A stretch of DNA of 15,377 nt, from IMG/VR virus record IMGVR_UViG_2713896899_000015. One strand, written 5' to 3'. The notes under the pieces were generated by a model. The model had not been told where the DNA came from and searched no databases. It saw only the letters and a program-made list of their open reading frames with translations. Position 1 is the stretch's first letter; every line of letters begins with the position of its first letter. Of this stretch, positions 1-15,377 are shown one piece after another. Position numbers and translations under genes: made by a program. Source of the DNA: a virus (Duplodnaviria > Heunggongvirae > Uroviricota > Caudoviricetes).

Positions 1-174
1 TGTCAGTTATCATCTTCGGTTACGGTTATCGGCAGAAGGCTCTGCCGCTGACAAGAGCTTATTTGCCTGACCAATCTACTTCACATGATAGATAACTATC
101 ATTTATAGCATTTGGCTTATTAACCTTTATTTTTCATTGCGTTACAAACAATAAGTTCGTCAAAAACAGTAAAA

Positions 175-230
175 TTAACTACACCATTAACTACACCGTT
201 CCACGAACAATATCGAACAACCACGAACAA
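175..230. repeat. Direct-repeat array: 2 x 12 bp tandem (ttaactacacc) then 3 x 10-bp phased units ccacgaacaa / tatcgaacaa / ccacgaacaa
   Basis: Read directly at 175-198 and 201-230. The 10-bp unit array recurs at 8402-8431 in the same orientation. One-helical-turn phasing suggests a protein-binding platform. Confidence 0.75.
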
Positions 231-303
231 AGATCAACACGCTTTAATCGTTATCGTTTTCCGGCTATCCGTTATCAAGCTGGTTGATGTGGTGCCATGT
301 TTC

Positions 304-455: not shown

Positions 456-612
456 TGCGGGTTATGCGGGTTAGCGGGTTATCTTCGCGTGCTAAGTATT
501 TTTTATACTTTAATATCAATACGTTAAAAAATTACGCGTTTAAATATTAGCCAAAACGTAACCCGCAAGACATTCAAAATAACCCGCAAACACCCCCCAA
601 ATAACCCGCAAA
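456..612. repeat. Iteron cluster A (GCGGGTTAT-type), inverted copy of the origin-type cluster; candidate second ori or P4 crr-like site
   Basis: Three contiguous forward iterons tgcgggttat/gcgggtta/gcgggttat at 456-482, an AT-rich core at 483-558, then three reverse iterons taacccgca at 559-567, 579-588 and 601-610 spaced about 21 bp apart. Mirror image of cluster 9771-9919. Confidence 0.6.
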
Positions 613-1543: not shown

Positions 1544-1837
1544 TTACGTACGCAGCCGCTCCGGTTTTTTCCACTGGTAAGTCTTTTTCTCGCTCTCCCG
1601 ATACATCTCCACGCGGCGACGATATGACAACAACTCCAGAACTCTGATCCGTATGTCGCGCATATCCACGCCGTTAATCTCGATACCGTCACGGCGCATC
1701 ACCTCAGCCACCACACGCGCGTAATTTTCGGCTATCACGCTGTCCGGCTGCGTGGCCTCCTGTTTGTCTGCTGTCTGGCTGGCTCCGGTAACACGGCGGA
1801 TTATTTTTAGTAGTTCGGTTTCGCTCATTCTCGTCAT
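1544..1837 (-). CDS. Hypothetical protein (97 aa) translationally coupled to the end of terL
   Basis: ATG at 1835-1837 overlaps the terL stop (ATGA). Last gene of the packaging operon. No recognisable motif. Stop codon sits in the centre of palindrome cgtacgta-t-tacgtacg (1536-1552). Confidence 0.5.
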   Translation of the reverse strand: MTRMSETELLKIIRRVTGASQTADKQEATQPDSVIAENYARVVAEVMRRDGIEINGVDMRDIRIRVLELLSYRRRVEMYRESEKKTYQWKKPERLRT

Positions 1838-3495
1838 ACCCCATCAAACGCCGCAAGCCGCTCTTTGTGGCTGTCGCTCATATCGAATGCAAAGTCCTCG
1901 TGCTCTGCCTGGAATGTGCCAAACGCCATCAGCGCCGCAACGCTCGGGTCTATCTTGTTGGATGATTTTTTCTTGTTCGGCTTGATATTGGCGTTCGCGT
2001 CACTCTGCATCACAACATTACTCATTGACCAGGCCAGCACCGGATCACCACGATGAACAATCACCTTCCGGTTAACAAAAACTTCGAACGATTTCGCCGC
2101 CGGACTGAAACGAAGGTATGTTTGCGGGAACGGCTCCACCTCAAATCCTGCCCCCTGTAGCTGCGTTCTCAGGTGCGTGGCGTTCCATGTATCGAAACCC
2201 ACCAGCCTGATATTGAAATTCTCTGCATCCGCCATGATGTCATCACGGATACGGTCATAATCAATGCAGTCACCCGGTGTTGTGCGTATCCAGCCCGCCT
2301 TTGCCCACTGGCGATAGATGGCGCGGTTTTTATTGGCAGGGTTCTGTAGCTGAAATTCCGGCAGATAGTGACGGGAAACCAGCATAATCTTTTTACCGAC
2401 CGGAAAGGCATAGCACACGCTGGAAATATCGCTGGTTGATGATAAGTCCAGCCCCGCGTAGCACTCCTGCCCGTATAAATCCGCCTCCGCGAACGTTCCG
2501 GCGCACTCCGCCCATGCACCGTTACCCATCCACGGCGTAGCCCCCTGACACCAGATATTGAATCGCTTGGTGAGCATTTCCACCCACTGCGACGGAATAC
2601 CCCGCGCTTTCTGGATGGTTGAGGCCAGTTTTTCACGATCGACGGAAACATCGATATTGGGATTCGCCTTTATCCACATCGCCGGATCGTCAACCTCGCT
2701 TTCATCATCCAGCTCGTAAATCAGCACGAACATGGATTCGTTCACCTCTTCACCATCCAGTATCTGGCAGCAATAGTCGTAGTGTTGTTTACAGGCTGAA
2801 ACAACGTTGCTCCCCGATGTGGTGATGGCAAATAACAGCCCCTCCGGGCGCGCCCCCATTCCCAGCTCAAGCGCGGAATAAACCCCGTTGTCAGGATGCA
2901 GGTGATATTCATCCACAATGGCGAGACTCGGGTTTGTCCCCTCAATGGTTGCCGCTTTTGCTGCCAGTGGCTTTAACAGGCTGTTGGTTTTCGGGTGTAT
3001 CACCTTGTGCGCCTGAATATTTACCCGCTTTCGTAACGGTCGGGATAAAAGGCACATCTGACGCGCATCATCAAACACGATCCGCGCCTGATCACGACTC
3101 ACGGCGGCGGTGTAAATATCCTGCTGCCCGTTTTCCATAACCAGAAACCAGTTAGCCAGGATAGCGGCGACCGTGGATTTGGCATTTTTTCGCGGTACTT
3201 CAATGAATGCGCTGGTGTATTTGCGCCGTCCGGTGGCCTTAACCTTAAAGCCCAGGATGCACGCAAAGGCGAACTGCTGCCACGGCTCCAGTTCAATGGG
3301 GCTACCGCGCATTGCACCTTTTACGTGCGGGCACACCCTGGAAAAGGCAATAAACCGCTCCACGACCTCCGGATCGAACGTGTAAAGGGGGTTTTCAAGG
3401 TCAGAAAAATACCGTTTAACGGCCTGTTTCAGTCGTTTACAGGCCGTAATTTTGCCGTTTTTTACGCCTTCTGCGTACTCATGCCAGGCGGTCAA
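1834..3495 (-). CDS. terL: Terminase large subunit (Terminase_1-type ATPase/nuclease), 553 aa
   Basis: Size and N-terminal ATPase region with P-loop-like KNAKST and a DEYH Walker-B-like motif. Follows terS with a 17-nt overlap. Apparent TTG start at 3493-3495 preceded by AGAGGA (Shine-Dalgarno). Confidence 0.88.
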   Translation of the reverse strand: MTAWHEYAEGVKNGKITACKRLKQAVKRYFSDLENPLYTFDPEVVERFIAFSRVCPHVKGAMRGSPIELEPWQQFAFACILGFKVKATGRRKYTSAFIEVPRKNAKSTVAAILANWFLVMENGQQDIYTAAVSRDQARIVFDDARQMCLLSRPLRKRVNIQAHKVIHPKTNSLLKPLAAKAATIEGTNPSLAIVDEYHLHPDNGVYSALELGMGARPEGLLFAITTSGSNVVSACKQHYDYCCQILDGEEVNESMFVLIYELDDESEVDDPAMWIKANPNIDVSVDREKLASTIQKARGIPSQWVEMLTKRFNIWCQGATPWMGNGAWAECAGTFAEADLYGQECYAGLDLSSTSDISSVCYAFPVGKKIMLVSRHYLPEFQLQNPANKNRAIYRQWAKAGWIRTTPGDCIDYDRIRDDIMADAENFNIRLVGFDTWNATHLRTQLQGAGFEVEPFPQTYLRFSPAAKSFEVFVNRKVIVHRGDPVLAWSMSNVVMQSDANANIKPNKKKSSNKIDPSVAALMAFGTFQAEHEDFAFDMSDSHKERLAAFDGV

Positions 3496-3835
3496 GCTCG
3501 TCCTCTTCCTCTGTTTCCGGTGGATTTCTGCGTCGGCTTACCGGGTCAAAACCCAGCAAAGAAGCCATTTTGATCATTATTCTTTCTGCGTCAGCCTTTG
3601 CGCTCAGGGCGGGGTTTCTGCTCTCGCTGCCCTGACTGTTAACAATGCTGAAGCCGCGCGTCGCAAGGTCTTCGACGGCTTTGCGGTATATGGAGTAGTT
3701 AACGCAATACAGTTCCAGATTGCTCCAGTCGGCGGGGGTAAGGTCTTCCCGCCCGGAAAGCTGGCGCGATTTTTCCTTCCACTGCCTGACCGCGATTTCA
3801 TCCAGGTAAGCGGGGGCTTTTGGTGGTCTTGCCAT
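3479..3835 (-). CDS. terS: Terminase small subunit, P27 family (118 aa from MARPPKAP...)
   Basis: N-terminus MARPPKAPAYL, internal LELYC..Y, and C-terminal NP....A.....K...LGFDP.SR then acidic tail, as in phage P27-family TerS. The ORF-track 5' extension to 3976 is judged non-coding. ATG at 3833-3835. Confidence 0.8.
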   Translation of the reverse strand: MARPPKAPAYLDEIAVRQWKEKSRQLSGREDLTPADWSNLELYCVNYSIYRKAVEDLATRGFSIVNSQGSESRNPALSAKADAERIMIKMASLLGFDPVSRRRNPPETEEEDELDRLA

Positions 3836-3954
3836 GTTCTTTTTTCGCCCAATTATTTTCAAAAAAATTCCCGTGCACAAAAATTTGAGGAGGCGGTCGG
3901 TGTCCGGCAGGGGCGGTTTCGTCCTGAAAACCTCCCCCACCCCCTCTGACGGCC

Positions 3955-4140
3955 TCACCAGCGATTGCGAAAACATTCCATGACCTCGCGGTCACGGTCG
4001 GTTAATCGCTTCGCTGTGGTGCGTTCTGTGCGCTCTGTCCTGTTGGCTTTGTGCCCTGTCTCCTGTGTCTTCCATAAGTCACGCTGCCTTATCAGTCCAC
4101 GTATCAGCCTGTTTTGCTCCTGTTCAGTCATCATCGCCAT
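3955..4140 (-). CDS. Possible small basic protein (61 aa) between HNH and terS; uncertain
   Basis: ATG at 4138-4140 overlaps the last 15 nt of the HNH gene in another frame. Weak Shine-Dalgarno, Arg/Thr/Glu-rich. Could instead be non-coding (this region is a cos-site candidate). Confidence 0.3.
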   Translation of the reverse strand: MAMMTEQEQNRLIRGLIRQRDLWKTQETGHKANRTERTERTTAKRLTDRDREVMECFRNRW

Positions 4141-4564
4141 ACATCCAGTCGTTACGATGTGCCGCCCGTTCTTCCTGCTCGCGATACATGCCCGCCTTAC
4201 GGTTCGCTTTCGTGGCTGGATCTTCCCGTGTCGTCTTACGGTTGTGGCACGTCTGGCACAATGCCTGGTGGTTCCACTCAGGCCAGAAGAGAACATCACC
4301 GCCGCCATTGATGGGAATGATGTGATCCACCACAAGAGCTGGCGTATAAATACCCTTAGCCAGACAACGCACGCATAACGGATTTTTTTTCAGGTACATG
4401 GCGCGGTATTTGTCCCACAGTCGGGAATACCCACGTGCGCGGCGGTGTCCCCGTCTGGCATCCTCTGCACGCCATGCAGCCCGCCTGTGCTCTTCACACT
4501 TGCCGGACTTCACGCGCTTATTACAGCCCGGCTCAGTGCATCGCCTTAATGGTTGCCATGGCAT
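4124..4564 (-). CDS. HNH endonuclease (terminase-associated), 146 aa
   Basis: Cys-rich N-terminus (C..C..C), then VDHIIP...WNHQALCQTCHNRKT, an HNH motif. Sits immediately upstream of terS-terL as in HNH-dependent cos packaging modules. TGATG coupling to the upstream gene. Confidence 0.9.
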   Translation of the reverse strand: MPWQPLRRCTEPGCNKRVKSGKCEEHRRAAWRAEDARRGHRRARGYSRLWDKYRAMYLKKNPLCVRCLAKGIYTPALVVDHIIPINGGGDVLFWPEWNHQALCQTCHNRKTTREDPATKANRKAGMYREQEERAAHRNDWMYGDDD

Positions 4565-7031: not shown

Positions 7032-8201
7032 CTAGCCAGCTTTCATTTCCAGAATTTTGATGGCGTTTGAATCCACCACACCACCGCCCAGATATTTATC
7101 CGTGTGGACCTTGTAGAATCCGGGTTCAGTAATGTTGTCCGGTCGGGTGCGAATCCCTGTTACATGATCAACGATGAAATAACCACGACTGAAATCGCCA
7201 ACCGCTAGCGGTGCTTTTCCTGCGCCGATGTCCGGCATGGACTCCAGGCAGTAAACAGGACGACCAAGCAACATATCCGGCGCACCTTCTTTAAGGCTGT
7301 CGCGCCAGATATAATCGCCGTTCTCATTTTTCAGCTTCTGTAGTGTCCCTGCCGTGCCCGAGTTCATCACCCAGACGGCATTTTTGCGGTATTTCGCTTT
7401 CAGCTTGTAGAGAATGTCGATCAGTTCGTCCGCTGTAATGGCGGTTCCACTTGCCGCTACCATTTTTTCAATGGTGCCAAAAGCGCGGGTTTTGTCACTG
7501 GTCGCCGCACGGGTGTAAGCCATGAATCCTTTCGGCTTGCCGTTACCGTCGCCATTAACAAAATCATCCTCTTCGGTGCTGGCGAACGTGTCGGCAATTT
7601 CGGAGGATAACCAGCCCAGAATATCCACCTCTGAAAAATCCAAGATTTCCTGCGTGGTTTTCGGGTAGGCGTAGATCGGATTCAGCTTGATGGTTACGCG
7701 TTCAATTTTCGGGGTGTTGGTTTCGCTGCGCGCGCTGCCTTCTGTGCCTCTTCCTACAGTTGCGCCGCCAGTGGAAACCAGTTTCTGAAACTCATTTGAT
7801 TTTGCGGTCTTCACGGTCGCGATCACGCGCATAACACTGTCATCCTGTAGCTGGCGCATGACTTCGCGATCAAGCTCAGGAATTACGGTATATCCGCCAT
7901 CCCTGCCGCTGTCAGTGCTGGTGGACAGTGATCGCACATCTCCGGTTACGATATAGTTACGCAATTCATCAGATGATAATTTCTGGATGCCCGTTCCTGG
8001 CTTGCTGCGTTCTTCATCAGCCACAGACTCGAGGCGGGAAATTTCTGTGTCGAGGGAATCGGCTTTTGCACGCAGTTCATCAAACTGTTTGCCCTCGTCA
8101 TCGTTCAGGCTGCGGTTTTCACTGTCGGCTTTTTCCAGCAGGGATCGCATCTGGTTTTTCAGGGCGGTTTTTTGCTGGCGGAGTTCGATTAATTTCTTCA
8201 T
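7032..8201 (-). CDS. Major capsid protein, HK97 fold, with N-terminal coiled-coil delta (scaffold) domain (389 aa)
   Basis: N-terminal ~100 aa is charged and heptad-like (delta domain). C-terminal region GTAGTLQKL...LLGRPV...GDFSRGYFIVD is typical of HK97-family capsid proteins. No separate scaffold gene. Confidence 0.9.
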   Translation of the reverse strand: MKKLIELRQQKTALKNQMRSLLEKADSENRSLNDDEGKQFDELRAKADSLDTEISRLESVADEERSKPGTGIQKLSSDELRNYIVTGDVRSLSTSTDSGRDGGYTVIPELDREVMRQLQDDSVMRVIATVKTAKSNEFQKLVSTGGATVGRGTEGSARSETNTPKIERVTIKLNPIYAYPKTTQEILDFSEVDILGWLSSEIADTFASTEEDDFVNGDGNGKPKGFMAYTRAATSDKTRAFGTIEKMVAASGTAITADELIDILYKLKAKYRKNAVWVMNSGTAGTLQKLKNENGDYIWRDSLKEGAPDMLLGRPVYCLESMPDIGAGKAPLAVGDFSRGYFIVDHVTGIRTRPDNITEPGFYKVHTDKYLGGGVVDSNAIKILEMKAG

Positions 8202-8401
8202 GAAGGTTTTCTCGTATTGGTTAAGATTCAGGACGTGAAACCAACACGGAGGGAGCGCCGCCCGACACTCTCGGCATCTCGCAGATCAACCCGGCATCGC
8301 GCAGGGGGTCAGGCGGCATTGTGGCGGCTCACGTCTGAGTGCCACACGCCAACATATACATAAAAATCAGTATGTAAACATCAGCCAGAATCACCGAACA
8401 A

Positions 8402-8470
8402 CCTGGAACAACCACGAACAAATAATTTACAAAACCTGAAAAAAAGACCTGAAAAAAAATCTAGGCCTTT
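8402..8470. repeat. 3 x 10-bp phased units caccgaacaa / cctggaacaa / ccacgaacaa (8402-8431) plus tandem 13-bp acctgaaaaaaa(g/a) x2 (8445-8470), in the capsid-upstream intergenic gap
   Basis: Near-identical to the array at 201-230 (shared 17-mer ccacgaacaa...). Located in the 275-bp noncoding gap 8202-8476 upstream of the capsid gene. Candidate activator-binding site or late promoter. Confidence 0.7.
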
Positions 8471-8476
8471 ATCGCT

Positions 8477-8725
8477 TTATTGTTTCACTGGATCCCGCAT
8501 TCTGCGTCTTATTTTCCACAGATATTCGATCATCGCTTCCACCTGCTCACGGTTGGTTGCGAAAATTTCCCCGGTCAGTGAGCTGCGCAGAAAATCATGA
8601 TGATCCACAACAAACAACGCATCGGAAGAAAGCAGACGGCGATATTTTTTTGCTGTCGTGGTTTCCAGATCATCAAAACCATGAAACTTTTTATGTTGCT
8701 GAACTTCTTCAAATGTCACTGGCAT
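8477..8725 (-). CDS. Hypothetical protein (82 aa)
   Basis: ATG at 8723-8725 with a GGGGG Shine-Dalgarno 5 nt upstream. Overlaps the ProQ/FinO gene stop by 10 nt. No recognisable motif. Confidence 0.55.
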   Translation of the reverse strand: MPVTFEEVQQHKKFHGFDDLETTTAKKYRRLLSSDALFVVDHHDFLRSSLTGEIFATNREQVEAMIEYLWKIRRRMRDPVKQ

Positions 8726-9246
8726 GTATCCCCCTTTGCTGCCCGGCGCTGGCGCTTGTGCTTCTCATTCAGCGCCATCAGCCGCGTTTCTGCCTCCTGC
8801 TGTTCCTGTGGTGTCACTTCCCCACATGGCTGGCCTTTCAGGTCGTAGCGTACCCCACCAGCTATTAAGGCGCGGTAATAGCGCGGAGACTGCGCATAGG
8901 ATGCCAGCGTCGCACGTAATGCCCCCGGCCCGAATGTCAGCCCCCTGGCGGCGATATCCTGCATCAGGTCGTCGAATATCCCCACCTTAAGCGGCTTCGG
9001 TGCTTCCCGGCTGAATAATTCTGGCCACAATTCAATAAGGCGGTTAACGCGTCTGCGGTTTTTGCGCTGGCGTTTGGTCATATGCCGCCACGCTGTCGCC
9101 CCTGTGGGTTTCTGCTGTGCGTTCTGATTGCCGGGTATCACTTTATGCGCCGATGTGGTTTTATCCTGCTGCTGTGCCGCCTGCGGTATTTTCTGCGGCG
9201 TGCCGTAAATGCCTTTCGGTTTTCGGTTAATGGTCATCTTTGTCAT
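8716..9246 (-). CDS. ProQ/FinO-domain RNA-binding protein (176 aa; alternative start at 9237)
   Basis: C-terminal half KPLKVGIFDDL...LRATLASYAQSPRYYRALIAGGVRYDLKGQPCGEV aligns by eye with E. coli ProQ (RPLKIGIFQDL...LRSALRLYTSSWRYL...RVDLDGNPCGEL). Basic, low-complexity N-terminus. Confidence 0.85.
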   Translation of the reverse strand: MTKMTINRKPKGIYGTPQKIPQAAQQQDKTTSAHKVIPGNQNAQQKPTGATAWRHMTKRQRKNRRRVNRLIELWPELFSREAPKPLKVGIFDDLMQDIAARGLTFGPGALRATLASYAQSPRYYRALIAGGVRYDLKGQPCGEVTPQEQQEAETRLMALNEKHKRQRRAAKGDTCQ

Positions 9247-9770: not shown

Positions 9771-9919
9771 CTGCGGGTTATAATCGCGCTTTTGCGGGTT
9801 ATAACTGCCGTTTTGCGGGTTATTTTGGGTATTTTGCGGGTTACGATTTTTCTTTCATTCCTTTAATAATCAAATGGATACTGATTTATCCACAGAAATA
9901 ACCCGCATAACCCGCAAAA
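9771..9919. repeat. Iteron-type replication origin (cluster B) immediately downstream of the primase gene
   Basis: Four forward iterons tgcgggtt(at) at 9772, 9793, 9814 and 9835, exactly 21 bp apart. AT-rich core 9845-9896. Two contiguous reverse iterons ataacccgca / taacccgcaaaa at 9897-9919. Sits between primase stop (9945) and ssb start (9708), as in PICI pri-rep-ori. Confidence 0.65.
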
Positions 9920-9944: not shown

Positions 9945-12080
9945 TTAATCTTCTTCGCTTTCTGGCTGGAACATCAGCACGTAAAAAACATGCTGCTTCC
10001 CCCCAATTTTGCCGAGCGCCTTTTTCTTGTAACGGCGATCGTTACCCGCTTCCAGCATTCCGGCAGCACTCAACGCGCGGGCAAAGTGAGACGGATTAAA
10101 TCCCTGTGCTATCTCACCCTCAAATACATGCGGGAATGTGTAAAAACGGAACTCGTCATCTTCGTTTCTGATACTCCCCTTTCTGTATCCGGCAAGCTCT
10201 TTAATCGGTAAATCACGCTCGTCAGAGTTGGGCCAGGGAAGGTATCTGCTGAATCCGAACGACGCTAAAAAAGCCTCTGCCTGTTCAACCATCTGTTTAA
10301 ACTCCCTGTTACCCGTGCCGAACTCCTTCACCCAGGCATTAAAATTATGCTGTATGGCATCGCGGCATTCCTGCTCATCCCAGCCAGTAACATGACCTGA
10401 AAGCACAAGCGCGGCCTCCAGTATGGCAAATCGCTCCCCCACACGGTGAACCTGTTCGCCGTAGCTCTCCGGTATCAGGTTGCGCCACCGCTCACGGCAT
10501 GTCCTTACCGTGTCCTTTGCCTCCTGCTGGTGTTCTGCCAGCCATTTAACCCACTCACGACCCGCTGCCCCGTGATTTTCTGTCCAGGCATCCTTTAACG
10601 CGTCTGCGTGCGCCTTTCCGGTGCTGTATTCGTGAAATTGTGTGGCTTTTTCCATCGGCACGTTAAGCAGACGGACAAGCTGCCCCGCTTTAATTTTTAT
10701 CCCTTCCGTTTTGAGGAATGTTTCAACGTCCATTTCTCCGGTACTGATTGCCACCGTGCGCCAGTGTTTGATCTCCCTGTTGCCGCCGTCCTTCGCCCCC
10801 TGTAATTTCCCCGAACCGTTAAACAGCGTATAAGCCGACGTGGACACTTCCCGCGCGTTTCCGGCCTGACCTATTTCATCCAGGGGTAACAGCCCGTCAT
10901 TGTGCGCCTCTGCCTCGTTGGCGATGCCTAACGCTGTACCGTACCAGGTCAGCCGTTGCGCGTCCGGCTCTCCCCATAAACTGGATGCGATGTTCTGTGT
11001 GGTGGTTTTCCCTGCCGATGACTGTTCGAAAAGATGTACCCCGAAGCCGTCAGCACCCACCAGCCCGATTAATGGTGCGGATAATGATACCGCCACACCC
11101 AGCATCATGGACGGATTACCACCAGCCAACCGCGCAACGGTATCGCGCCAGCCCTCCGCCGTTCCTGCCACGGAATAACCATTAACAGCGGCAGTTTTTC
11201 CGGTAAACAGGACTGGCTTTTCGCAATCACCAATGACCGAACCGTCCGGCATGATGTACGCGCCAAAATGCCAGCCCGTTGTTGTGCTTAACTGCCATTC
11301 CTCATGGTTTCCGCTTAACTGCATCCAGTCAGCCAGGATAGCCCTGTATTTACCGTTGGTTGTCACATTCAGTCCGTGGTCTTTCAGCAGCCGCCAGCCG
11401 TCACGGTCGCCAATGCCCCCACACGGGATCGCCATTGTGATGACTTCATGGTTTGCTGGTTTTTTCCAGCGCATCACGCGGTAATGCTCTTTGCCGATTG
11501 TCCCCGTTCCCAGTAGTTCAAGCGGGGAACATAACCACGTCTCAGGCCGGATAATTTCGCCTGACTGCTTATCCACTTTTGGCGTTACCCAGAAAACACC
11601 ATCGGCACGGCTTTCAACGCGGGGCTTTAATTCATCATCACCCGGGCTTGTGGTGGTTTTTTTCTTTACCGGAAGTTTAATTACCAGATCTGCAGAAAGA
11701 TTCTGACGCTCAACGTTCAGATAGCGCCGCCAGTTCTCGCATTTCTGACCGTGCATTCCTTCAGGGTAAAAATTCGCATCCTGAATATCTGCCGCCGCCA
11801 GCTTCTGACCGATCTTTTTGGTCTCCACTAAATCCAGTTCTCCGGCCTGGTACAGCCTTACGCGTTTTTTCCCATCCGGAACAATTTTCAGCGCATCAAG
11901 TTCGGCAAGCTGATTTGGCCCAAGCCACACAGGCGGCACATCATCGCCAGATGCGGGGCCGTCCTGCTCCTGCCACTGTTTTGCATGTGCCCACGCATCA
12001 CTACCCGCGAAAATAATTACCTCTGTGTCTTTGTGTTTTATTCCGCGTGGTTGTTTTTTTACGTTCGGTGCCAGTTTCAT
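9945..12080 (-). CDS. Replication initiator, primase/helicase-type (PICI Pri-Rep / P4 alpha-like), 711 aa
   Basis: Large multidomain protein with a P-loop (SSAGKTT) in the central region. Directly upstream of the iteron origin. ATG at 12078-12080 overlaps the preceding gene stop (ATGA). Domain family not verified by search. Confidence 0.75.
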   Translation of the reverse strand: MKLAPNVKKQPRGIKHKDTEVIIFAGSDAWAHAKQWQEQDGPASGDDVPPVWLGPNQLAELDALKIVPDGKKRVRLYQAGELDLVETKKIGQKLAAADIQDANFYPEGMHGQKCENWRRYLNVERQNLSADLVIKLPVKKKTTTSPGDDELKPRVESRADGVFWVTPKVDKQSGEIIRPETWLCSPLELLGTGTIGKEHYRVMRWKKPANHEVITMAIPCGGIGDRDGWRLLKDHGLNVTTNGKYRAILADWMQLSGNHEEWQLSTTTGWHFGAYIMPDGSVIGDCEKPVLFTGKTAAVNGYSVAGTAEGWRDTVARLAGGNPSMMLGVAVSLSAPLIGLVGADGFGVHLFEQSSAGKTTTQNIASSLWGEPDAQRLTWYGTALGIANEAEAHNDGLLPLDEIGQAGNAREVSTSAYTLFNGSGKLQGAKDGGNREIKHWRTVAISTGEMDVETFLKTEGIKIKAGQLVRLLNVPMEKATQFHEYSTGKAHADALKDAWTENHGAAGREWVKWLAEHQQEAKDTVRTCRERWRNLIPESYGEQVHRVGERFAILEAALVLSGHVTGWDEQECRDAIQHNFNAWVKEFGTGNREFKQMVEQAEAFLASFGFSRYLPWPNSDERDLPIKELAGYRKGSIRNEDDEFRFYTFPHVFEGEIAQGFNPSHFARALSAAGMLEAGNDRRYKKKALGKIGGKQHVFYVLMFQPESEED

Positions 12081-12369: not shown

Positions 12370-12597
12370 TTATTCTCCGGTGTGCTGCGCTTTATTATTC
12401 TCGTGAATTGCCATCACTGTATTTAATTCATTAATTACTGGCGTTAATAATGTGTGCACGGCAGAAAACATCATGGGATATGATTCATCGCCATTTTCCT
12501 GCACTTCCATTAACTTAAGTAATAATGCCTCCATTTCCTTTGCGCGGATTAATGCGTTTTCAGAATGAACAAGAACATCAAAGGGTATTTTATGCAT
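12370..12597 (-). CDS. Hypothetical protein (75 aa)
   Basis: ATG at 12595-12597 overlaps the upstream gene stop (ATGCATAA). Helical-looking, acidic. No recognisable motif. Confidence 0.6.
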   Translation of the reverse strand: MHKIPFDVLVHSENALIRAKEMEALLLKLMEVQENGDESYPMMFSAVHTLLTPVINELNTVMAIHENNKAQHTGE

Positions 12598-12793
12598 GAC
12601 TCACCCCCTGACGAATACGGGCGGCGAATACCATCACGCAGCCAGCCGGGGATTGCTGGCGTGCTTCCTGTTCGCTGGTGGCCTCAATGGTAATCACGCG
12701 CGGTTGTGCCGTGCTCAGGGCGATAAAACGCCAGATATATTTATTCAGGTTGTGCGAGTCCCGCCCTTGCGGGTGTGTGGTATGATTTAACAT
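12590..12793 (-). CDS. Hypothetical protein (67 aa), first gene of the leftward replication operon
   Basis: ATG at 12791-12793 preceded by a strong GAGGT Shine-Dalgarno. The 306-aa ORF in the track is this frame extended upstream through the divergent promoter and RHH gene, which is judged spurious. Confidence 0.55.
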   Translation of the reverse strand: MLNHTTHPQGRDSHNLNKYIWRFIALSTAQPRVITIEATSEQEARQQSPAGCVMVFAARIRQGVSHA

Positions 12794-12992
12794 AGCTACC
12801 TCGATACGCTTTCTATCGTTGGTGGTTAGAAGCCCTGCGAGTGATAACGACACTTGCGGGGCTTTGCATTTATGCACCTTGACAACCTCAAGGTGTGGCC
12901 CACTATATTCTTTAGGTGTGGCCCACGTCAAGAGTTTTATTTGTGCTTTTTCTGTGTATACTGTCCCCCACCAATCCAACAGAGGAATAGAA
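12794..12992. promoter_or_regulatory. Divergent promoter/operator region between the replication operon (-) and the RHH gene (+)
   Basis: Consensus -35 TTGACA at 12879-12884 with candidate -10 TATATT at 12904-12909 (19-bp spacer). Two perfect 13-bp direct repeats aggtgtggcccac at 12891-12903 and 12914-12926 overlap the -10 and start region. TATACT at 12957-12962. GAGG Shine-Dalgarno before the RHH ATG. Confidence 0.5.
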
Positions 12993-13172
12993 ATGGCAAC
13001 GGGTACAACAAACGCAAAATCACAAGCTCTAAAGGCTCGTGTACCACACGAAATAGTAAACGCCATGGAATCAGTGAAAGAATCAGGCGAAAGCACATCA
13101 CAATTCATCATTGCGTCAATGCAAGGCGAGATCAAACGCCGCCAGCGACGCAAAGCCAAGGAGTCAGAATAA
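12993..13172 (+). CDS. Ribbon-helix-helix (CopG/Arc/MetJ-like) DNA-binding protein, 59 aa; candidate island repressor/regulator
   Basis: ATG at 12993 with GAGGAATAGAA Shine-Dalgarno. Sequence KARVPHEIVNAMESVKESGESTSQFIIASMQGEI fits the RHH pattern (beta-strand RVP, helix, G.S.S..I, helix). Confidence 0.65.
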   Translation: MATGTTNAKSQALKARVPHEIVNAMESVKESGESTSQFIIASMQGEIKRRQRRKAKESE

Positions 13173-13229
13173 TCACTATCAGCGCCGTGGTGTGAGTAAC
13201 TACGGCGCATTGCTATGCAGGTGCTTACC

Positions 13230-13409
13230 ATGAACGATAAAGAGTTAAAAAAAACACCACCACAAACACTGAAAGGACAGCGCAAAAAGATAGCGCATGA
13301 GCATGAATCAGAAAGATTCGCCCCCTGTTCTTTTGCTCTTGAGAAATTCCTTAAGGAGCACAAGAAAAAGCTATCATTGCAAACCAGGGAACGAACCGAA
13401 TCTGACTGA
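13230..13409 (+). CDS. Hypothetical small Lys-rich protein (59 aa), co-transcribed with the RHH gene
   Basis: ATG at 13230 with AGGTG 6 nt upstream. Followed by an intrinsic terminator. A stem gcgccgt/acggcgc (13182-13208) lies between the two genes. No recognisable motif. Confidence 0.4.
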   Translation: MNDKELKKTPPQTLKGQRKKIAHEHESERFAPCSFALEKFLKEHKKKLSLQTRERTESD

Positions 13410-13473
13410 TCACATTGCCCACCAGCCAGCAAATCGCTATGATGTTCGGGCTTATGTTTAGTGTTTTCCCATT

Positions 13474-13501
13474 GGCGACCGCCCCCGGTCGCCTTTGTTT
13501 T
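13474..13501 (+). terminator. Rho-independent terminator of the RHH operon
   Basis: Stem ggcgaccg (13474-13481), loop cccc, stem cggtcgcc (13486-13493), then tttgtttt. There is no U-tract on the other strand, so it is unidirectional. Confidence 0.7.
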
Positions 13502-13520
13502 ATGTGTCATATACTCCCCT

Positions 13521-13817: not shown

Positions 13818-14138
13818 CTCTTAAATTAAAAACACAACCTTGCTAAAGGCTTGTTCGCTAAGGTTCGTAGAAGCTCGTTAGTGTTTAAAATCGTGTCACG
13901 AGTTTTTAAGCGACGCAACAAAAAATGTCGTCACTTGGCATTACGCTTGAATTATCTCATTAAAAACAAATAGATAAATCATCAGGTATTGGAACAATCA
14001 AGAAATAGCTAATAAGGGTTTAGTAGGGTGCATTTCAATTTTTTCGATGGTTGACAAATAAAAAATTAACGAACTTGACCGATATTTAGCGTTTTATTCA
14101 CGGCTGTAATCTCTTAAAGAAAAAACAGCCGTAATTTG
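13818..14138. promoter_or_regulatory. AT-rich int-alpA intergenic region with inverted repeat acggctgt-N17-acagccgt (14100-14132); probable alpA promoter/operator
   Basis: 321-bp gap at about 70% AT between the int stop and alpA. Contains TTGACA at 14051-14056 (+) and TTGACA on the minus strand at 14133-14138, plus an 8-bp-arm inverted repeat. No confident -10/-35 pairing could be resolved by eye. Confidence 0.3.
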
Positions 14139-15377
14139 TCAAGAATTTTGGGTGTAAATTCGCGGGGTCATAACAACGATTTTTTCATCATTGTTCTGGA
14201 GAAGCTCGAGACGGTCTACCCATAGATTAAGAGCATCACGTTTTGCATCAAGATAACGGGAGTGGTTATAGACTCGTTGCATCCCTGGCATCTGGTGGGC
14301 TGTAAGCTGCTCGACAATATGCGGATCCACGCCTAAATCGTTCAGCATGGTTGTAAATGTGTGCCGGATATCGTGTAACGTCCAGGGGGCTTGATTAATT
14401 CGTCTGTGCGCTGTTCTTCCGTACTCTGCTACGGATGATTGCCCTTTCAGTTCTCCAAGCAATAAGCCCGTGTGCCTGTTCTTCTCCACCAGCTGCGTGA
14501 CGAACGGCAGAATGCTTTCCGGTATTGGTCTGAATATGGCGACCTTCGTTTTGCTGTGCTCCTTCGGTACTGTCCAGAGCATTTCCTTAAAATCCCACTC
14601 CTGCACCTCAGAGCGCCTTAGCTCAGTGGTACGGCATCCAAAAACAATCAGGAGGCGAATTAGGGCGCTGTAGTACGGCGGGAAGATTTTTTCATCCAGT
14701 GCGCGGAGTAGTTCCCCAAGCTCTTTGTTTGTCAGTACACGCTCACTTATTTCTGCTTTTTTCCCCACATCACCTACGACCATATCATCAAGAACGTTGC
14801 TGATTGCGTATCGTCGTTTTCGGCAGTACTTAAGCGCCTGTTTGCATACCTGTAGCAAAAATCCGGCTGATACCGGATTACGCTTAGCAAGCTGGTCAAA
14901 ACAGGCCAGCCAGTGGCGTAGCTCGCATTTTTCCAGTGGCATAGCGCCAATCTGGCTAATTATGTGTTTATTGATCCGGCTTTTCAGTGATTCGTAGTCA
15001 GTGCGCTTTTCCTTTGCGTACGATTCAAGCCAGTAAGTGAGCGCTTCCTTAACCGTCACGGGGGCTAACGCATCCTGTACAGCATGATTAAGTTCATAAC
15101 GCGGATTTTTCCCCTCAGCCAGCCAGGCGCGACACTGTGCCGCTTTTTCCCTGGCAGCTTTCAGGCTCAGATCGGGATAATTGCCCAGCCTCAGACGTTC
15201 CGGTGATATCTGCCTACCAGTTCCGGCCCTGTAAGTGAAATACCAGGTTAACAGGCCATTGATTGAATGCCTTACGCTAAGGTTGCCACCATCATTAAAA
15301 AAGGTGCTTTTTGTGGTTGGTGATCCGCTTAATTTTCGTAAAAGAGTGTCGCTAAGTCTATGAATTGCCCTGCTCAT
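14139..15377 (-). CDS. int: Tyrosine recombinase / site-specific integrase, P4-like (412 aa; start codon on the window edge)
   Basis: C-terminal catalytic region HDIRHTF...LTAHQMPGMQRVYNHSRY contains the H-x-x-R and terminal Tyr nucleophile context of tyrosine integrases. Size is typical of P4-family integrases. The ATG occupies 15375-15377, so a further upstream start cannot be excluded. Confidence 0.9.
   Translation of the reverse strand: MSRAIHRLSDTLLRKLSGSPTTKSTFFNDGGNLSVRHSINGLLTWYFTYRAGTGRQISPERLRLGNYPDLSLKAAREKAAQCRAWLAEGKNPRYELNHAVQDALAPVTVKEALTYWLESYAKEKRTDYESLKSRINKHIISQIGAMPLEKCELRHWLACFDQLAKRNPVSAGFLLQVCKQALKYCRKRRYAISNVLDDMVVGDVGKKAEISERVLTNKELGELLRALDEKIFPPYYSALIRLLIVFGCRTTELRRSEVQEWDFKEMLWTVPKEHSKTKVAIFRPIPESILPFVTQLVEKNRHTGLLLGELKGQSSVAEYGRTAHRRINQAPWTLHDIRHTFTTMLNDLGVDPHIVEQLTAHQMPGMQRVYNHSRYLDAKRDALNLWVDRLELLQNNDEKIVVMTPRIYTQNS

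Follow-up and report, generated by a model that had tools for sequence, protein, structure and literature searches.

The DNA considered here, IMG/VR virus record IMGVR_UViG_2713896899_000015 (Caudoviricetes; 15,377 nucleotides, of which the whole stretch is referred to below as the window), is by its gene content an Escherichia coli capsid-forming phage-inducible chromosomal island (cf-PICI), with the gene set and gene order of the cf-PICI EcCIEDL933 (bioRxiv 10.1101/2022.09.08.507074; the EDL933 locus itself was compared). Near its left end, at 174-240, a tandem 12-bp doublet is followed by an array of 10-bp units in the attachment (att) arm that lies away from the integrase gene, int. Judged by co-variation among related islands and by analogy with other mobile elements, these repeats are probably the protein-binding part of that arm, with the doublet serving the integrase (Int) and the array acting as an operator for AlpA. 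The large genes of the window are all on the minus strand, and the coordinates of its features are collected in Table 1.

The repeats in the integrase-distal att arm

Window positions 1-106 match 5425 of 5426 complete E. coli genomes, and in the island-free strain K-12 the match to the window stops at 106, inside yljB. In the syntenic island L001, the start codon of clpS directly precedes window base 1. The island of the window has integrated ~95 bp upstream of clpS, at the 3' end of yljB. The sequence ATAACTATCAT is the only 11-nt word common to both junctions of L001, marking the att core. The repeats at 174-240 are therefore found 72-138 bp inside the island, in the int-distal att arm. A 77-bp spacer separates the core centre from the doublet, and no match to the IHF consensus WATCAANNNNTTR with at most one mismatch was found in 95-262. 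In E. coli ZH063 (L002), an island with int and alpA 99% identical to those of the window lies between bioD and uvrB with the core AACTGTCAT; from these junctions, the same integrase seems to act at two chromosomal locations whose cores are similar (AACTGTCAT and ATAACTATCAT).

The two copies of the 12-mer ATTAACTACACC are identical, and the word occurs nowhere else in the window with zero or one mismatch, while the one match with two mismatches (3692-3703) is at chance level. After a gap of 3 nt follows the array CCACGAACAA TATCGAACAA CCACGAACAA, continued in phase by a degenerate fourth unit, AGATCAACAC, at 231-240. Both repeats had been picked out in a first-pass annotation made from the sequence alone, which began the feature at 175, one base inside the first 12-mer (an immaterial difference). 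The same annotation correctly recognized a co-oriented copy of the array upstream of the capsid gene, at 8392-8421, with which the left-end array shares the 17-mer GAACAACCACGAACAAA; this is the longest word common to both arrays (215-231 and 8406-8422). Chains of three GAACA(A) units at exact 10-bp spacing are observed twice in the window and in 0 of 1000 dinucleotide-preserving shuffles of it, and the phasing is thus not random.

The annotation itself considered that the element might be a common genome-wide repeat, which does not appear to be the case. Homologues of window 150-260 are present in 962 of 5426 E. coli genomes, at one to six places in each. Furthermore, in seven loci scanned together with their host flanks (the window and six others), chains of at least three units are found only in PICI att arms, upstream of alpA and upstream of cf-PICI capsid genes, and none is found in the host flanks. 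A scan of genome contigs with GAACAAN4GAACAAN4GAACAA was uninformative, returning unrelated taxa (Dehalococcoidia, Streptomyces) among the matches listed.

The description of the surrounding DNA as apparently gene-free stands. None of the open reading frames (ORFs) in 1-1540 matches Pfam or PHROGs, and an Rfam scan of the whole window returned no family. The stretch is nevertheless not without function, carrying host flank, att core, att arm and an iteron cluster. It also contains an exact 23-nt direct repeat, CCACCAATGGTGGAAAAGCCCAC, at 304-326 and 1413-1435 (1.1 kb apart), and a 47-nt repeat at 1031-1077 and 1147-1193 that ends in ..CGAAAATATCAGCGGGTTAG. Both of these elements recur at the TerL-side ends of EcCIEDL933, EcCICFT073 and the E. 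coli island L003, and may be cos or TerS-recognition elements.

Two roles had been suggested for the left-end array in the first-pass annotation: a binding site for a recombination directionality factor (RDF), and a promoter reading leftward into unseen accessory genes. The former is supported by the att-arm position, by the occurrence of this composite module in the opposite arm of near-identical islands as well, and by the way the array varies with the AlpA allele, as described below. The latter is not supported, since the left neighbour is the host core gene clpS and the island ends at its att core (92-102), leaving no unseen accessory genes to the left. An AlpA-dependent promoter that fires out of the island, with a transcript entering clpS-clpA, is highly unlikely. 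The array does have the orientation of the capsid-upstream copy, which adjoins a leftward promoter-like site, and a minus-strand TTGACG hexamer is present at 158-163. However, this hexamer lacks an acceptable -10 element and is missing from the EDL933 and CFT073 arms, the doublet stands where the capsid copy has its -35 and -10, and the gene that would be transcribed is a host core gene rather than island cargo. An outward sigma-70 promoter was rejected, as no sigma-70-like site, that is, no -35/-10 pair, is found on either strand in 1-1600.

Table 1. Positions of the features of the window discussed in the text.
Feature	Position	Strand	Basis or remark
Host chromosomal DNA, upstream of clpS, outside the island	1-91	.	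E. coli genome matches
att core / crossover region ATAACTATCAT, integrase-distal junction	92-102	.	Junction comparison, end of K-12 match
12-bp tandem doublet ATTAACTACACC x2, predicted integrase arm-type sites	174-185, 186-197	+	100% identical copies (Tandem Repeats Finder, repeat search)
10-bp array CCACGAACAA TATCGAACAA CCACGAACAA, predicted AlpA operator	201-230	+	3 strong units
HNH, TerS, TerL	1834-3495	-	
Prohead protease, portal, head-completion, connector proteins		-	
Major capsid protein	7032-8201	-	Gene start at 8201
Promoter-like site TTTACA-16-TATGTT, towards capsid gene	8351-8378	-	Only match in 8150-8550; 13 nt from array
Second array CACCGAACAA CCTGGAACAA CCACGAACAA	8392-8421	+	Upstream of capsid gene (start 8201, -)
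ProQ/FinO-family protein	8716-9246	-	
SSB		-	
DUF927 primase	9945-12080	-	
DUF4222 protein		-	Window gene list
alpA, 69 amino acids	13521-13730	-	Pfam Phage_AlpA E=1.7e-16, 60 bits (cut-off 21)
Third, weaker array TAACGAGCTT CTACGAACCT TAGCGAACAA	13851-13880	-	121-150 nt upstream of alpA start codon
int, tyrosine integrase	14139-15377	-	Pfam Arm-DNA-bind_3 E=8e-16 (N-terminal), Phage_integrase E=1e-18

In addition to its Pfam match, the AlpA of the window matches PDB entry 8c3t, an 'AlpA family phage regulatory protein' (E=4.9e-8); an AlphaFold (AF2) model from the single sequence is poor (pLDDT 62.5). An ORF of 306 amino acids called at 12590-13510 (-) matches Icd-like and 'transcriptional repressor' PHROGs over residues 223-305 only, and is probably an over-long call.

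Co-variation of the repeats with integrase and AlpA

The window was compared with the E. coli islands L001-L005, L128 (EcCIEDL933), L129 and L183 (EcCICFT073), and with 51 IMG/VR loci chosen as encoding close AlpA relatives, giving ~60 islands overall. As the window ends with the start codon of int, the proximal arm was read in L001 and L002, which serve as proxies with an Int N-terminal domain (N-domain) 97-100% identical and an AlpA 99% identical to those of the window. In these two islands, a second doublet, AAATTAACTACACC ATTGACTACACC, lies ~24 bp upstream of the int ATG, and is followed by the array ..GGGCAAACAG CGACGAACAA GGGCGAACAA, both in the orientation of the distal module. About 50 bp further, next to the core, are two more co-oriented units, GGCGAACACC CGCGAACACT. 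The distal doublet is 77 bp and the proximal doublet 132 bp from the core centre, and the gap between array and doublet is 3 bp in the distal arm and 12 bp in the proximal arm. A matching architecture is seen in both arms of EcCIEDL933 and EcCICFT073, with the units TGGAACAA / TGAAACAA.

Among these islands, the sequence of the doublet follows the N-domain of the integrase. Doublets of type A (ATTRACTACACC x2) occur with Int N-domains 74-100% identical to that of the window, and those of type B (ACTGACCACACA x2) with N-domains that are 97-100% identical to that of L129 and 58-61% identical to that of the window. A third type (GCAATACAC x2) accompanies the integrase type of helper-embedded PICIs (HE-PICIs; 44-48% identical), as in L005 and L165. 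Types A and B track the Int N-domain in 20/20 arm-containing loci, whatever the AlpA. As three types of doublet co-vary with the Int N-domain, the integrase is favoured as the binder of the doublet. The locus thereby combines an integrase with an N-terminal arm-binding domain, repeats in both arms and repeats that co-vary with the integrase, as in an attP arm of the P4 type, and the 12-bp doublet is predicted to supply two of the four integrase arm-type sites of attP.

The array, on the other hand, follows AlpA. With each distinct arm sequence counted once, the two bases before AACA are CG in 35 units and GG or GA in 0 across the 17 arms whose AlpA is at least 80% identical to that of the window (with Int type A or B). 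In the 5 arms with an AlpA of the EDL933/CFT073 type (Int type A), they are GG in 7 units, GA in 3 and CG in 0. With window-type AlpA, position counts over 20 distinct arm arrays give the consensus nnnC(G/A)AACAA; the consensus with EDL933/CFT073-type AlpA is nnTG(G/A)AACAA, position 4 switching from C to G. In type-B arms, the spacer and three to four variable bases of each unit differ from those of the window and the CRAACAA core is kept. The array thus consists of at least three direct repeats one helical turn apart, the criterion for an RDF operator array (PMC7498355), and it further shares with such arrays a small RDF-family protein, a position in the att arm by the Int sites and co-variation with the RDF allele. 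It is predicted, from this pattern and by analogy, to be the operator of AlpA, an excisionase-like activator. Since the doublet tracks the integrase and the array tracks AlpA, the simplest reading is one of Int arm sites accompanied by an AlpA operator.

Alternatively, both repeat families could be arm-type sites of the integrase, the 10-bp units being additional or lower-affinity sites and the copies at promoters serving Int autoregulation. In phage lambda, tandem arm-type sites (P'1-P'3) are spaced at ~10 bp, and the arrays here directly adjoin the doublets in both arms. The integrase of KplE1, which is of a comparable type, represses its own promoter (PMC2951348). Nevertheless, a role of the integrase at both repeats is decidedly improbable: where the Int N-domain has diverged to 58-61% identity, the doublet is replaced by ACTGACCACACA and the CGAACAA units stay, and where Int type A is kept and the AlpA class changes, position 4 of the unit changes and the doublet remains constant. 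In addition, arrays without a doublet are found upstream of alpA and of capsid genes. That doublet and array are interleaved within 30 bp and yet behave in opposite ways in two lineages argues for selection, short of proof.

A role in replication, with the arrays as iterons of a P4-like ori/crr bound by the primase of the island, is extremely unlikely. The type-1 iterons of P4, GGTGAACAG, do resemble the array unit and have a spacing of ~10 bp, crr lies beside the distal arm in P4, and one of the window's iteron clusters (456-612) is only ~220 bp away. The real iterons of the window are, however, TAACCCGC (456-612 and 9772-9916), and the arrays stay constant across islands that differ in both primase and iterons, namely L129 with a P4-type primase and GGTGAACAG, L003 with a RepA helicase, and the window with its DUF927 primase. 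Replication iterons were rejected on this persistence across three replication types. The iteron clusters of the window (456-482 / 559-612 and 9772-9850 / 9898-9916) each combine GCGGGTTA repeats, an AT-rich spacer and inverted TAACCCGC repeats; one is located just downstream of the primase gene and the other ~220 bp from the distal arm, mirroring ori and crr of P4.

Arrays upstream of alpA and of the capsid operon

Related arrays are found at two positions away from the att arms. The array upstream of alpA is weaker than the other two, but phased CGAAC units are kept at this position across three diverged promoter variants (28 distinct sequences), and in EcCICFT073 six units are arrayed between int and alpA. 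Experiments with EcCICFT073 have shown that its AlpA activates the alpA promoter and induces excision (PMC6092414). AlpA is needed for excision and induction in EcCICFT073, EcCIEDL933, EcCIMP1 and PICMI115. Three IMG/VR loci (L175, L176 and L178), with an AlpA 80% identical to that of the window, carry an extra 3-unit array directly after the alpA stop codon, TCACGAACAA CCGCGAACAA (G/C)TACAAACAA, a fourth type of operator location. Separately, many relatives (L133, L136, L139 and others) have in the int-alpA interval, just past the int stop and ~330-400 nt upstream of alpA, a 10-bp-phased repeat, AATATC(G/T) x3, of which the window has a shorter version at ~14070-14095. This repeat is a candidate for binding by the helper-phage inducer of alpA.

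The array upstream of the capsid gene sits just past the end of the preceding operon and at about -48 to -77 of the likely promoter of the capsid operon (Table 1). The capsid leader of EcCIEDL933 is non-homologous, and it too has an array, CAGTGAACAA CGTGGAACAA CCACGAACAA, and a promoter-like site, TTTACC-16-TATTCT, 15 nt off; the array is thus kept in cf-PICIs with two unrelated leader sequences. Operators like those of the att site at distant promoters, as found here upstream of alpA and of the capsid gene, are characteristic of dual-purpose RDFs and regulators such as Apl, Cox and Vis. AlpA may accordingly control the capsid operon as well, coupling excision to capsid production, although this is the weakest step of the interpretation. 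Immediately before the capsid-upstream array, cf-PICIs carry an 82-amino-acid ORF (8477-8725, -; phrog_1957, function not known), which is 39-45% identical between cf-PICI variants, and a ProQ/FinO-family gene (8716-9246, -).

It is also conceivable that the arrays are bound by a protein other than AlpA, such as a host response regulator, the helper-phage inducer of alpA or the product of the 82-amino-acid ORF. Winged-helix response regulators of the OmpR/PhoB/TorR type read direct repeats with a period of 10-11 bp, and the tor boxes have the sequence CTGTTCATAT. In line with such a binder, the capsid array shows no co-variation with the AlpA class and is still present in L005 despite its divergent AlpA, the 82-amino-acid ORF always precedes the capsid array of cf-PICIs, and induction of alpA requires a helper factor (PMC6092414). 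We consider this improbable, as a host or helper factor leaves the C-to-G switch at position 4 with AlpA class unexplained. The 82-amino-acid ORF, for its part, is missing from L001 and L129, and EcCICFT073 has a 19%-identical ORF in its place; all three islands carry arm arrays. It was rejected as the binder, having no match to a DNA-binding family and being absent where arm arrays persist.

What the sequences show directly are the positions of the repeats, their phasing, their conservation and the two independent co-variations; in the mechanism proposed here, that AlpA and the integrase bind, how cooperatively, and whether a given promoter is activated or repressed are inferred from these arrangements. 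The doublets in the two arms would provide four sites for an integrase tetramer. AlpA, a small winged-helix protein, would bind as monomers on successive helical turns, as other RDFs do. Once a helper phage turns alpA on, AlpA would occupy the arrays beside the Int sites in both arms, giving rise to an excisive complex. Its occupation of the related array upstream of alpA would result in positive autoregulation, and that of the array 13 nt from the promoter-like site of the capsid and packaging genes would place excision and capsid production under one protein.

Several observations weigh against this interpretation. The assignments of binders are all based on co-variation and analogy. In the excised circle, int, alpA and the two arms make up a single stretch of ~2.2 kb, and this linkage of attP, int and alpA means that co-inheritance contributes to the co-variation. 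The doublet of the distal arm stands between the core and the array. The Xis sites of lambda sit between P2 and the core, and a simple model of bending towards the core therefore does not apply to the distal arm. The capsid array mixes CG and GG units without co-variation with the AlpA class, and L005, a prophage-embedded cf-PICI with a divergent AlpA, retains it unchanged and has no arm arrays; the capsid module of L005 is 97.8% identical to that of the window, and recent exchange could explain the retention. Furthermore, array units read towards the gene at alpA and away from it at the capsid operon, which is awkward for an activator that makes specific contacts. The RDF TorI, in which a similar site core is found, is only 25% identical to AlpA, and the common core GTTCG is thus a lead rather than a test of membership. 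Finally, the AlpA of EcCICFT073 left the activity of the int promoter unchanged (PMC6092414), though arrays sit there.

A broader proposal, which is put forward tentatively and may well prove wrong, is that a single code, (C/G)RAACAA at 10-bp phase, is read by AlpA at both att arms, the int promoter region, the alpA promoter and the capsid/packaging operon, wiring the whole cf-PICI cycle, with the capsid copy as a portable AlpA-responsive cassette. If so, the mixed CG/GG capsid cassette would be tolerant of AlpA alleles and would move with the capsid module among PICIs with differing integrases and AlpA proteins, and cross-activation among co-resident satellites would be possible. The arrays lead to a defined prediction of three or four arrays, a consensus unit and a one-base difference in specificity between two AlpA classes.

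Comparison with known systems

Site layouts of this kind are well known from other mobile elements, and the present one is most likely not previously described for this family of PICI satellites. That phased RDF operators are reused at promoters is well established (P2/186/P4/KplE1), and finding it here is tidy rather than surprising. What appears to be new is this particular operator, its one-base specificity for AlpA alleles and its connection to the capsid operon of cf-PICIs, none of which was found in the literature searched. AlpA has been called the master switch of Gram-negative PICIs, and the searchable literature yielded no mapped AlpA DNA site in PICIs and no description of how the cf-PICI capsid operon is activated.

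The AlpA of Pseudomonas aeruginosa, a small winged-helix protein under the same Pfam family name, activates lysis and late-type genes. It acts as a processive antiterminator through the element GGGACGN5GGTA, located between -35 and -10 (PMC7969949). In contrast, the capsid array of the window is upstream of the -35 and its sequence is unrelated, and a loading site for an antiterminator of this kind was rejected.

The nearest analogue of the array with experimental backing is that of TorI of KplE1/HK620, a small winged-helix RDF whose attL sites have the core GTTCG/GTCCG/GATCG (PMC2951348), and GTTCG is the reverse complement of CGAAC in the arrays. Three TorI sites, spaced with a 10-bp period, directly adjoin the -35 of PintS, and closer to the core two more form a second block (PMC2951348; K-12 sequence). 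TorI differs in being 25% identical to the AlpA of the window and below the Phage_AlpA threshold, in having sites in one arm only, where it represses, and in having no known role at a late operon.

The operators of 186 Apl are direct repeats one helix turn apart, of which three adjacent ones are required (PMC7498355). Apl and P2 Cox use one type of operator at attP and at a distant promoter region, and RDFs of P2-like phages and P4 likewise reuse att-like operators at distant promoters (PMC7498355). The arrays of the window follow all of the Apl rules, in helix-turn spacing, in three adjacent operators and in reuse at promoters, although Apl and Cox belong to a protein family unrelated to AlpA. 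The distant site of 186 is repressive and is flanked by lytic and lysogenic promoters that face each other, whereas the distant sites of the window precede the RDF's own gene and the capsid operon, and activation would be expected.

Satellite P4 offers a close parallel at the att site. Its integrase is of the same P4-like kind with an N-terminal arm-binding domain, and its record annotates co-oriented 12-bp tandem 'attP arm sequence repeats' in both arms. These doublets, at 3942-3965 and 4151-4174 around the core at 4078-4097, have their nearest edges ~122 and ~64 bp from the core centre, compared with ~132 and ~77 bp here. The start codon of int is near the proximal doublet in both elements, a second iteron cluster lies by the distal arm, like crr, and the P4 RDF, Vis, is an AlpA-family excisionase that also regulates transcription, including a late promoter (PMC7498355, PMC2603039). 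On the other hand, the P4 doublet, (A/G)T(T/G)GGGGGCA.., is unrelated in sequence, and no GAACAA arrays lie by it, the sole candidate being a TCCG motif with ~10.5-bp spacing in the proximal arm. The order of genes is not that of P4 either, and capsid and terminase are encoded by the island itself. Elsewhere in P4 (L181), at 9176-9205 upstream of vis/PLL, the annotated 'ori type 2 repeats' CCACTTAAAG TCATTTAAAG CCACTTAAAG share with window 201-230 the layout of three 10-bp units and the variable bases CCAC / T..T / CCAC.

Finally, HE-PICIs carry a co-oriented 12-bp 'doubled motif', tgTGTATTGCantgTGTATTGCa, in both arms at 81 +/- 2 and 132 +/- 2 bp from the attP centre (PMC10111431), a layout equal to that of ATTAACTACACC x2. 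The motif was reported as unique to HE-PICIs, and the Int arm domains, AlpA or another protein were left open as its binder (PMC10111431). Among the islands compared here, other PICI clades carry doublet sequences of their own that co-vary with the Int N-domain, and the doublet appears to follow the integrase rather than AlpA. This suggests that the doubled motif is the form taken in HE-PICIs by a feature shared generally among P4-like satellite integrases.

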